Part shown: piece by piece, positions 58,132 through 64,000 of the stretch | Position numbering within the stretch: the stretch's first letter is position 1 | How the letters are laid out: each line of letters begins with the position of its first letter | Notes under the pieces: model-generated | The model's database searches: none | The model's input: only the letters and a program-made list of their open reading frames with translations | Told to the model about the DNA's origin: nothing | Translations under genes and position numbers: made by a program | Assembly: GCA_017404385.1 (NCBI GenBank) | Contig: JAFRCK010000017.1 | Location: 3,419 to 67,418 of the forward strand | Direction: 5' to 3' | Source of the DNA: Bacilli bacterium | GTDB lineage: Bacteria; Bacillota_I; Bacilli_A; RF39; UBA660 | Length of the DNA stretch: 64,000 nt

Positions 58132-61100
58132 ATGTCAGAAAACTATGTTATAAAAGTAGACAAATTGAAAGGATATCAAAATACCTTAAAAGGTGAATAC
58201 ACTAATTTTACGAATGGAGTTCGTAATCCTTTTTTGGGTGGCTATTTTTATGATACTTCTGATCAAGCAATAAAAACAATGCGAGATAATATTGAGGCTT
58301 ATTTAAATAAAATAGATAGTGGATATAATAAAATCGATTCTTGGTTAGGTAAATATATAGAAGAGTATACCAACTTAGAAAATTCTTTAAAAAATGGTAG
58401 AGTAAGTGGAATAACAGATCATGATACTAATTTCTTATTAAGTAAAATAGTAGATAAGAATAATGTTACAATTAAAGAACCAACAAATATTATCTATAAT
58501 TTAAAACAAAAAGACAATAAAACAGAAAGAGCTGCTAAATATGATACAAGTAAATTTGATAGAAATAATCTAAGGTTAGATAGCATTGGTGAAATATTCA
58601 CTGCAATTAATAATGGAGATGCTGATATAGTATTAGATTACATGTATGGTGAACATGCTGATGAATATCTAGAAATATCTTCTAATCTGAATTATTATGA
58701 AGAATATCAAAAGACTTTAGATTCTGAAGTAAAATCATTAGAGGCTGAATTAAATGAATATATTGAATATAAATCAGTTTCTTCATATGGTATGACAATT
58801 TCTGGTGGTGGAGTTGGTGGAATTATTTCTGGTGAAAGTGAAAGAATAGAAAAAGGCCACAAAGAAATTCAAGCAGTAAATGATTTGATAGCGGAAAAGA
58901 ATAAAATTGATGAACAATTTAATGAAATATTAAAAGATAGGGCTTCTAATGATAAAGATATACAAGCAGTATTAAGTAATCAATCTGCTACTTATGAAGA
59001 TTTATACAAAGTTTTATCAGAAAAAGCTAAAACTGATAGTGATTTAAATAATGTATTAACAAAAAAGACAGAAACAGACGAAAAATTTAATCATTTAACA
59101 AGTACTCAAATGAAGTATTATTTATATCTTTCTAAGCAAGCAGAATTAGCAGCAGTTAATAAAAAAATAATTGATTTAAGAAATGATCAAGATGCATTGC
59201 ATTATAAGGTTATTGGAGATACAGATGAGTATAAAGAATTTCAAAAGACATATTCTATTGAAGATTCTTATAAACAAATAGTAGATGCTGGAGCAACATA
59301 CCAATATCATGAAAATGATTATGATTGGTTTGCTTATTATGAAACTTATGCGAATGAAGGATTAGGTTTAAAAGAAGCTGGTTTTGAAAATCAATCATTA
59401 AAAATAGGTGAATTAGGCGCAGAGGTAGATGTAGACGTATTTTATAGACATGCAACTGATAAGGAAAAACAAATGTACCATTATCTATTTAATACAAAAG
59501 GAGCAGCAGAAGCAAATAAATATGTCACAACTCTTCTAAATAGAATAAATGAAGAAGAAGGTAGAGAATTAGCAGAAAAATCACAAAAAGAAATTGATTA
59601 TTATTATTCTGGTTATGCTGATGAAAGTGGATGGTATAGAGTAATAAGTTTCTTGGCTGCACAAACAAAAGTAACAGAAAAAGGAATAGAAACAGGATTT
59701 AATCAGTTTAATAGAGGTATTGATAGTTGTGTTGTAACAAAAAAAGTAATGACAGTTGATGAATGGAAAGAATACTATGAATCTGATTATATTAGAGAAT
59801 TAGGATTTGGATATTATTATGATGTTGTTACTAATACAACAAAAATGCTTCCTGGTATGGCTATAGGTCTTGCTTCTACACCTGCACTAGGTTCTGCAAT
59901 ATATACAGCATCTATATGGGGTAGTACACATGATGATGCAATAAGAAGTGGAATGAGCGAAGAGGATGCATTTAAGTATGCGACATTAATAGCTTTAGAG
60001 GAATATGCAACAGATTTATTATTTAAAGCAACACCAGGTTTAAGTAAAGTTGATTTTGAAAAGAGCTTTTTTAAAAGATTTTTTAAGGAAGTAAGTGGAG
60101 AAACTCTTCAAACTTATTATGAAAAATGGATGGATTGTGTCTATAAAGGTGAAGAATGGGATCTTGGAGAAGTATCTGAAGAAGCTCTTTATTCTTCATT
60201 AGTCGCAGCTGGATCGTTCTTTTTGATAAGTGGACCAAGTGCTATAAAAAGTTCGAATGATATAGTAATAAAGTATAAAGTAAACGGTCAAGAATGTGAA
60301 ATTAGAGGTACAAAAGGAATACAAAAAGTATTAGTTGAAGCAGGTATAGTAGATAGTAGTTTTGATTTTGATAATATTTCCGAGTTTGATGCTAATATTG
60401 CGGCTGCTGATATGATGGCAGATGATGGAAAAATTGCTGAAGTAAAAATAACTGATATTAATGAGGTTACTGAAGAAAAGTTATCAAAAATAAAATACAA
60501 AGAAAGGGTAATGTTTACACTACCTGATGGAAGAATGCTTTCTTTTAATGAACTCCAAGCAGAATTAGGTTATGATGGTAATACATCTACAAATGAAACA
60601 ATAGCATCTGAATTAAACCAAAACGATTTATCTGATATTTATCAAGAACAATCAAATACTTATCAAGATAGTGATGTAGATATATTTGCTGGTGTTCAAA
60701 AACTTACAGAAGATATTCCTGATATTGCTGGTAAAGTGTCTGAAACTGCTAATGAAGCAGCACAAAATGGAGCAAGAGCATTAAAATCATTAACAGAAAA
60801 ATTTGGATTGAATAATAAAGGCAATGGTACATTTAAGTCGGGGCTCATAGATTTATCTAAATTGATTATAAATAATAATGTAGGAGCTATTAAAAATCCA
60901 TTCGCAAAATTGTTTGGACAAAATGATGGAAATTTTGAAATACCAACAAAAGGTCTTCCTAAATGGCATAGAAGTACGATAAAAGGTTGGGATTTAAAAA
61001 TAGATAATGAAATAGGTAATAATTTACATGAAATAATGTCAGATGAAGATTATGTATATGGTGTACATAGAACACCTAGTCTGGATTCGGCTAATACTAT

Positions 61101-64000: not shown

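Follow-up and report, generated by a model that had tools for sequence, protein, structure and literature searches.

The LXG toxins that belong to type VII secretion system b (T7SSb) are usually 500-700 amino acids (aa) long, and T7SSb toxins have been studied almost only in cultured pathogens. It is known that T7SSb toxins combine an N-terminal helical domain with a variable middle part and a polymorphic C-terminus (PMC10765036, PMC5555719), that ADP-ribosyltransferase (ART) toxins exist with ARH immunity proteins, as do giant multi-domain polymorphic toxins (PMC3482391), and that some T7SS variants have reduced or different component sets (PMC11217815). The gene analyzed here lies at the 3' end of a stretch of 64,000 nucleotides (nt), hereafter the window, from contig JAFRCK010000017.1 of a Bacilli bacterium (assembly GCA_017404385.1), where a giant reading frame begins at position 58132 and runs off the end. 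The comparative data make it very likely that the segment 58132-64000 represents the first three quarters of a gene for a modular polymorphic toxin of about 2570 residues, probably a cargo of the adjacent T7SSb. What appears to be new in this locus is the combination of a leader family distinct from LXG, a length of about 2570 aa, shuffled folded modules belonging to families absent from Pfam and NCBIfam, and an apparently minimal essC cluster.

The LXG toxins of Streptococcus intermedius (TelA/B/C), Bacillus subtilis (YxiD/YobL) and Staphylococcus aureus (EsaD-type) share several traits with this putative toxin. Their genes, like the one in the window, lie next to essC and to genes for small WXG100-like helical proteins; in both cases a leader without a Sec signal is followed by a variable middle part and by a polymorphic C-terminal toxin domain, after which the immunity gene is found. 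Likewise, DUF4176 (Ltc) genes occur near relatives of the giant gene, and the C-terminus of EssC co-varies with the downstream cargo. The differences concern the leader, which the LXG profile (PF04740) does not recognize and in which L-x-G is not conserved; the size; the middle part, where tandem repeats and a series of modules, four or more in number and either folded or conserved, take the place of a disordered linker; and the secretion cluster, where EssA, EssB and EsaA are not recognizable in the window. The segment under study is the following:

58132..64000, + strand: 5' part of the giant putative toxin gene, codons 1-1956 of about 2570; no stop; 92% identical to, and collinear with, aa 1-1953 of the 2570-aa protein P0001

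The initial annotation, made from the window sequence, had proposed an open reading frame (ORF) of at least 1956 codons from ATG 58132, and this was confirmed by translation: the frame 58132-63999 on the + strand contains no stop in 1956 codons and is open up to the window end, against 203, 344, 130, 90 and 129 stops in the remaining five frames over 58132-64000. With the composition of the window (A 0.41, T 0.33, G+C about 0.25), the chance of a stop is 0.10 per codon, and the probability of 1956 stop-free codons is P ~1e-90. The ratio of nonsynonymous to synonymous substitution rates (dN/dS) is 0.26 in the comparison with the related locus L002 (aa 1-1113), and 0.19 (aa 251-1956) and 0.51 (aa 1-250) in that with the orthologous locus L001; since these values range from 0.19 to 0.51, the frame is a selected coding sequence, i.e., a real gene under purifying selection. 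Its absence from the program-made list of ORFs is due to the fact that the list omits ORFs running off the source. The ATG is located 10 nt past the stop of a gene for a 103-aa protein (57810-58121), with a Shine-Dalgarno-like GGGA 8 nt upstream; the N-terminal sequence quoted in the initial annotation and the placement of the gene right after essC (53073-57707) and the 103-aa gene were both correct. No hydrophobic segment exists at the N-terminus of the product. The window protein has no match in Pfam (E ≤ 1), in NCBIfam or among the sequences of the Protein Data Bank (PDB), while PADLOC returned nothing meaningful and PHROGs a single match, below threshold, to a function-unknown family.

Among 5.8 billion proteins searched, two relatives of the giant protein were retrieved, P0001 (locus L001) and P0002 (locus L002). 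P0001 has 2570 aa, in agreement with the earlier remark that the protein is well above the size of typical LXG toxins. It is 92% identical overall to aa 1-1956 of the window protein and collinear with it, so that about three quarters of the gene are present in the window; the identity rises to 98-100% from about aa 250 and is 100% over the final ~250 residues of the window. At its C-terminal end, P0001 has a stretch of 150 residues that matches the ADP-ribosyltransferase exoenzyme family (PF03496, E 7.8e-19) and, among the solved toxins, Certhrax (6.5e-11) as well as Vip2, C3larvin and CdtA. The corresponding motifs can be read in the sequence: the Arg in VVYRG, the STS in YLSTSLD and the catalytic Glu in MEEILL. 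From these matches and motifs, P0001 is predicted to end in an ART domain of the R-S-E class, Certhrax/Vip2-like.

In L001, the next gene after that of the toxin encodes 94 aa and matches DUF4176 weakly (E 1e-3, below threshold); its profile found no meaningful match in the PDB. It precedes a gene encoding a 278-aa ADP-ribosylglycohydrolase (PF03747, E 1.3e-33; DraG, 4.6e-12; Tri1, 2.6e-7). It is known that DUF4176 proteins are Ltc chaperones specific for T7SSb toxins (PMC12478183) and that Imm-ARG immunity proteins are strictly tied to ART toxins of the R-S-E class, which is exactly the pairing observed in L001 (PMC3482391, Zhang et al. 2012). The small immunity gene that the initial annotation suggested looking for past the 3' end is therefore found in the orthologous locus, in the form of the glycohydrolase gene, whereas the window ends before that point. 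The presence of a glycohydrolase immunity gene favors a bacterial target rather than a host one, and the toxic activity that can be identified would be an ADP-ribosyltransferase encoded past the window end, not a metallopeptidase. The same arrangement of an R-S-E ART and an ARH-family gene, which in L001 scores on both the Tri1 and the DraG models, is found in the Tre1-Tri1 pair of Serratia. Differently from the latter, which is delivered by a type VI secretion system, the L001-type toxin is likely a Gram-positive T7SS one; its ART domain is nearest to the Certhrax/Vip2/C3 group, has M-E-E instead of [QE]-x-E, and is encoded by a part of the gene located outside the window.

The comparison of strains also points to a polymorphic toxin. 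The homology between P0002 (1880 aa) and the window protein is limited to aa 1-1113, with 72% identity; past the shared part, P0002 carries a second, divergent copy of an internal domain (HRT-like, see below) and a different C-terminus, and the gene downstream is also a different one, of 224 aa. Since the methyltransferase, RluA and 165-aa proteins encoded nearby in L002 are 97-99% identical to those of the window, L002 belongs to the same species. In a third locus, L003, from a related genome (92% identity in the leucyl-tRNA synthetase, LeuRS), essC lies directly before a Y-family polymerase gene, without any toxin cassette; in both L001 and L002 this polymerase gene comes after the cassette, which is hence a presence/absence polymorphism. 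A conserved N-terminal part joined to a C-terminus and a downstream gene that are swapped between strains is the behavior of a polymorphic toxin, and the proposal of a giant polymorphic-toxin-type protein was borne out by the strain-variable C-terminus and by the ART domain and immunity gene of the orthologue. Other members of the family, as read by eye, seem to end in different candidate toxin domains: a papain-like Cys/His pattern (GACSYA...GGHAVF) can be seen at the end of P0002 (aa ~1540-1880) and of P0147 (aa ~480-729), a transglutaminase-like C...H...D pattern in P0064 (aa ~700-800), and an HESNH motif, together with the domain called module A at the C-terminus, in P0075. None of these candidate ends in P0002, P0147, P0064 and P0075 matched Pfam, nor did the C-terminus of P0002 match the PDB.

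The nucleotide identity between the window and L001 is 55-87% from the essC stop to about position 58900 and 96-100% beyond. The divergence of EssC between strains is mostly confined to its C-terminal ~250 residues (aa 1300-1544), with 57-69% identity in aa 1300-1500 against 88-98% in the core (aa 700-1000), and the first ~250 residues of the toxin are its most diverged part with respect to P0001 (42-72% identity). These profiles describe a recombination mosaic, in which the EssC C-terminus, the 103-aa gene and the toxin leader diverge together, and the body of the toxin (from about aa 260) has been exchanged recently. The variants of essC are known to co-vary with their cargo in the same pattern. 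In L002, downstream of the cassette (16449-16823), there are pieces resembling the yukD-like gene (58% at the amino acid level) and the last ~78 codons of essC (63%), which look like a recombination scar of cassette exchange. The order of the surrounding genes differs as well: in L003 (77-3863 and 9995-12415) essC comes first, with leuS about 7.4 kb downstream of it, and in the window the two are in the opposite order, leuS being about 5.6 kb upstream of essC. The leuS-essC region is rearranged between the two genomes.

The genes located upstream of the giant gene form a cluster of the T7SS type, arranged as follows:

50866-51543, + strand: 225-aa protein with two WxG motifs in its sequence, apparently a fused tandem WXG100
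51634-51921, + strand: WXG100-like protein of 95 aa, YQTLD (YxxxD) at the C-terminus; weak Pfam match
51922-52245, + strand: 107-aa helical protein
52248-52712, + strand: 154-aa helical protein, matching the C-terminal part of the LXG profile (E 5e-4, below threshold)
52813-53061, + strand: 82-aa YukD/EsaB-like protein (YukD, E 0.09, below threshold)
53073..57707, + strand: essC, FtsK/SpoIIIE-type ATPase of the T7SSb, 1544 aa (TIGR03928, 1005.7 bits, cut-off 778.4)
57810..58121, + strand: 103-aa helical protein, encoded directly 5' of the toxin gene; a candidate toxin-specific partner or adaptor

On the strength of the TIGR03928 score, the ATPase is classified as a bona fide T7SSb EssC; in Pfam it also matches FtsK_SpoIIIE (E 8e-46) and, weakly, FHA. 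The WXG100 matches of the window have E values of 1e-3 and 2e-3 (18.6-19.5 bits, with a gathering score of 27.3), and the YukD match scores 13.9 bits with a gathering score of 27; the counterparts of the WXG100-like genes in L002 carry a precomputed PF06013 assignment. Taken as a whole, the cluster 50866-57707 looks minimal, consisting of small WXG100/YukD-like and helical proteins plus EssC. The 103-aa protein has no match in Pfam, NCBIfam or the PDB; L001 has an orthologue with 74% identity in the corresponding position, whereas in L002 none was found. Just past the essC stop (57707-57800), a perfect 14-bp AT-rich inverted repeat with a T-run after it (AAAAAATTAGTTAA-tcttt-TTAACTAATTTTTTTTT) can be observed; a terminator scan of the gap between essC and the toxin gene called none, the scan needing at least three G-C pairs and the hairpin being AT-rich, and the promoter-like matches in this gap were no better than those in shuffled sequences.

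A similar gene context was found for other giant proteins sharing the leader or the central region with the one of the window. WXG100 genes are beside all four of them, DUF4176 genes beside three and essC beside one. In detail, the neighborhood of P0064 contains WXG100 genes (one firm and three weak matches) and two DUF4176 genes; that of P0146 one DUF4176 and three WXG100 genes, and next to P0146 a gene for a 1535-aa FtsK/SpoIIIE protein of the EssC type; that of P0016 a WXG100 and a DUF4176 gene; and that of P0011 a WXG100-like gene (weak match), in a layout like that of the window. The giant proteins of this family thus appear to be consistently linked to T7SS genes.

The giant protein can be divided, from its 5' end, into the following parts:

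58132..58821, + strand: N-terminal leader (aa 1-230), presumed T7SS targeting domain on the basis of the gene context
59440..60411, + strand: conserved central region (aa 437-760); phmmer matches to P0129 (E 3e-16) and P0016 (E 3e-7)
60433..60567, + strand: first copy of a ~45-aa module (aa 768-812; ...KITD..EVTEEKLSKIK....V.F.LPDG...SF.EL); BLASTP, 40% identity to P0001 aa 2066-2118, E 7e-8
60928..61467, + strand: "HRT" domain (aa 933-1112); last module in common with P0002
61702..62631, + strand: module A (aa 1191-1500), a predicted helical bundle plus an alpha/beta half
62812..63831, + strand: orphan HEGGH module (aa 1561-1900), with a single motif; no homologues found apart from P0001
63853..63999, + strand: beginning of a pair of ~160-aa tandem repeats, the first of which opens with the second copy of the 45-aa module (at about aa 1908); the repeat runs past the window

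The leader had been described as LXG-like, an assignment that found no support. Neither LXG (PF04740) nor WXG100 gave any match at E ≤ 10 with the isolated N-terminus and with six related or candidate N-termini, and the FLGG that could be read as an LxG motif (aa 34-37) is FSRG in both P0001 and P0002; for these two reasons, membership in PF04740 is unsupported. In a local database of 153 sequences, the leader profile A2 recognizes P0064 (E 5e-8) and P0146 (E 3e-5) at their N-termini, and it has no meaningful match in the PDB. A contig scan with the N-terminal alignment returned no relative, the patterns used being of low complexity. The leader nonetheless represents a family, analogous to LXG and not detectably homologous to it, and the giant protein, while not a demonstrable member of PF04740, probably works like an LXG toxin, i.e., through a leader and small partners recognized by EssC.

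The central region contains two moderately hydrophobic segments rich in Gly, Ala and Ser (at about aa 575-597 and 685-705, with hydropathy peaks of 1.2-1.5) and a PGLSK motif; it is also carried by P0011 (alignment A8) and matches neither Pfam nor the PDB. As for the tandem repeats, in P0001 they span aa ~1905-2065 and ~2070-2230 and are 54% identical to each other (E 1e-63), and the portion present in the window (63853-63999) is 100% identical to P0001.

When aa 801-1956 were used in an exhaustive HMMER search, 367 proteins were obtained, belonging to two families, module A and HRT. The HRT domain has the motifs YGVHRTP, LTGDxSSG, GYGMVVKIPK and YLKPEFIV; it is found in P0029, a stand-alone protein of 198 aa (E 1e-36), and in P0064, P0129, P0146 and P0147, and occurs twice in both P0002 and P0147. 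Its AlphaFold2 (AF2) model has a per-residue confidence (pLDDT) of 68-92, with no Pfam match for the sequence and no significant fold match in the PDB (best Foldseek E 0.065). The possibility that HRT is an ART of the H-Y-E/PARP-like type (YGVHRT...PEFIVAQVEV) was also considered and discarded: the candidate catalytic positions are lost in the divergent second copies, and Foldseek on the model gave no ART match.

The matches of module A include stand-alone proteins about 300 aa long, in the hundreds, with 30-39% identity and E values down to 1e-47; in the search with aa 801-1956, 286 representatives had E ≤ 1e-10, and nearly all of the matches listed were to module A. The same module constitutes an internal or C-terminal domain of the giants P0011, P0016, P0075 and P0117. 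It is absent from Pfam and NCBIfam, and its fold, predicted by AlphaFold with a pLDDT of 91.5 and a pTM of 0.88, matches no PDB structure; the invariant residues are H, H, N, R-D-x-G-H-A, Y..P-K..N and P.D. The stand-alone genes lie in housekeeping neighborhoods (L083/L084 6001-6903, L096 6724-7590, L098 7001-7912). Two of them (P0003 and P0004, diverged by more than 50%) are located directly after addB-addA and are translationally coupled to them, one has a Crp-type regulator on one side and a Mur ligase on the other, and another is beside LemA-DUF2207, genes that flank the giant P0011 as well. No recognizable immunity partner was found alongside the stand-alone loci, which argues that module A is probably not intrinsically toxic.

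This modular structure resembles that of the giant polymorphic and MARTX toxins, such as those of the SACTE_5178 type from actinobacteria (Zhang et al. 2012), which are likewise long chains of recombining cassette modules. The phylum and the export route are different from those of the window toxin, whose internal modules, apart from the ART domain, match no recognized toxin family.

The module that had drawn the attention of the initial annotation is the one containing HEGGH. This motif is present, and is followed by VEMIMAE (aa 1716-1722); it occurs once in the protein, at aa 1696-1700, which corresponds to nt 63217-63231 and not to 63227-63241, the position given before, about 10 nt off. 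No homologue of the module (~340 aa) besides the 100%-identical stretch of P0001 was found by phmmer, profile, metagenome, plasmid and phage searches, nor among the best 150 of the 367 matches of the search with aa 801-1956; a word-index search (364-aa query) was uninformative, as it missed even the 100%-identical P0001. Further along the module, the string ...AEEIRAN..A.YF resembles the E..AN.FA motifs of some zincins, and is reported only as a lead.

It could be supposed, as the HEGGH motif initially suggested, that the protein is a canonical LXG toxin of the T7SS with a zincin metallopeptidase (HEGGH...E) as its toxic or processing activity. The T7SS gene context fits this proposal, as does the fact that a single HExxH is found where only 0.025 would be expected by composition in the giant protein. 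A hydrophobic SVLY precedes the motif, and VEMIMAE, 17-22 residues after it, is compatible with a glutamate as the third ligand; the HExxH and this downstream acidic, helix-like segment are shared with the zincins of the Tox-MPTase, MPTase-PolyVal/ArdC-C and M78 ImmA/IrrE types. Unlike these, however, the module has no sequence or profile similarity to any peptidase family, with no match in Pfam, NCBIfam, PHROGs, PADLOC or the PDB sequences, and a diverged homologue in which the conservation of the motif could be checked was not found in the searches. In the AF2 model of aa 881-1900 the region has a pLDDT of 20-45 and the motif is in a low-confidence coil rather than in a helix, besides the fact that Gly-Gly within an active-site helix would be unusual. 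The HEGGH motif alone is weak evidence for a zincin. If it is also considered that the N-terminus has no LXG match and no conserved LxG, and that the recognizable toxin is a C-terminal ART with a matching immunity gene, this explanation seems improbable.

A second possibility is that HRT, module A and the HEGGH module are independent enzymes which, together with the ART domain, form a polyvalent, MARTX-like multi-effector protein, possibly autoprocessed. HRT and module A do occur stand-alone and, in varied order, in other T7SS-linked giants; module A has an enzyme-like set of polar residues that do not vary, and its globular fold is predicted with confidence; in P0075 it occupies the extreme C-terminus, i.e., the position of the toxin. 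Giants with several toxin domains are also known in other phyla (PMC3482391). Nevertheless, a single recognizable immunity-type gene follows the orthologue, whereas several antibacterial effectors would need several; the stand-alone module A genes are without a recognizable immunity partner and in housekeeping neighborhoods; the invariant residues of HRT are only structural once its divergent second copies are included; and no catalytic fold was recognized for HRT, module A or the HEGGH module. Such a multi-effector is possible, although unlikely. A bolder version of it, in which the non-LXG leader would export active modules, with module A, from a widespread housekeeping family that is operonic with addB-addA in two lineages, hitting the DNA or the recombination machinery of the target and HEGGH representing a new zincin that processes the chain, is quite unlikely. 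HRT, module A and HEGGH are better regarded as putative accessory or additional effector modules.

Finally, the protein might not be a T7SS cargo at all, being instead a cytoplasmic or surface protein, or a polyvalent protein of a mobile element, that lies next to essC by chance. The absence of LXG homology goes in this direction, as does the fact that the T7SS membrane components were not found in the part of the window scanned; domains of the ART type are, moreover, known from MuF-type phage toxins and from polyvalent proteins (in part, PMC5576092). Against it stand the linkage to WXG100 genes, mostly with DUF4176 or essC, in four independent relatives, and the co-variation of the leader with the EssC C-terminus. 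Moreover, PHROGs gave only one sub-threshold match, the plasmid and phage searches with the HEGGH module returned nothing significant, and the genes flanking the toxin cassette in the window, L001 and L002 are chromosomal housekeeping ones, without phage or conjugation genes. A chance neighborhood of this kind has a very low probability.

The interpretation of the giant protein as a polymorphic toxin exported by the adjacent T7SSb has, in turn, some points against it. Since the leader has no detectable homology to LXG or WXG100, targeting to the T7SS is drawn from the gene context, and the WXG100 and YukD matches of the window, like the DUF4176 match of L001, are all below the curated thresholds. 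Among the window ORFs scanned, from 31.9 to 58.1 kb, EssA, EssB and EsaA were not found; their genes may have another location in the genome, or other components may take their place, as reported for T7SS variants (PMC11217815). The ART domain and its immunity gene, on their part, are read from an orthologue on another contig and are expected, by collinearity, rather than seen in the window, whose copy could end differently because polymorphic toxins swap their C-termini; in addition, the third motif of the P0001 ART is M-E-E, while the canonical one is [QE]-x-E.

As for the organism, the leuS product of the window shares 95%, 92% and 90% identity with the LeuRS of uncultured Bacilli known from metagenome-assembled genomes of the sheep ileum and the cattle gut, which places the window in an uncultured, genome-reduced Bacilli lineage of very low GC content (25%) living in the gut of ruminants or other animals. 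The region 44438-45052, upstream of leuS, contains a T-box leader (98.2 bits) whose end is separated from the leuS start codon by 434 nt. Such a distance between a T-box and its gene is unusually large; it is filled by a TTG-initiated ORF of 139 aa with no Pfam match. A further group of tandem genes (39052-43847) encodes an AAA+ ATPase and two zinc-ribbon proteins, one of which is a peptidase of the clostripain family (C11) carrying the ribbon at its N-terminus; it is unrelated to the toxin.

If the giant protein is a polymorphic toxin of the T7SSb, its mode of action might be depicted as follows. The helical leader would be bound by the small WXG100-like or Lap-like partners, and possibly by the 103-aa protein too, and recognized by the variable C-terminal domain of EssC, leading to export; the central hydrophobic region could then aid the entry into the target cell, where the C-terminal ADP-ribosyltransferase would modify an essential target of neighboring bacteria. 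The producer would be protected by the glycohydrolase, which might remove the modification and/or block the toxin, according to the Imm-ARG/Tri1 paradigm.

The same secretion logic (essC, WXG100-like partners, an Ltc-like chaperone and an immunity gene) would in this way be applied to a cargo four times larger, and the ART/ARH pair would extend the enzymatic-immunity paradigm of Tre1-Tri1 to a likely T7SS toxin. Module A represents a large, confidently folding family, absent from Pfam and NCBIfam and without a PDB match, with an intriguing partial linkage to addBA. Should the bolder polyvalent reading be true, three protein families and one class of T7SS cargo, all of them new, would be defined by the window. 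In any case, profile surveys based on PF04740 will miss this class of putative toxins.

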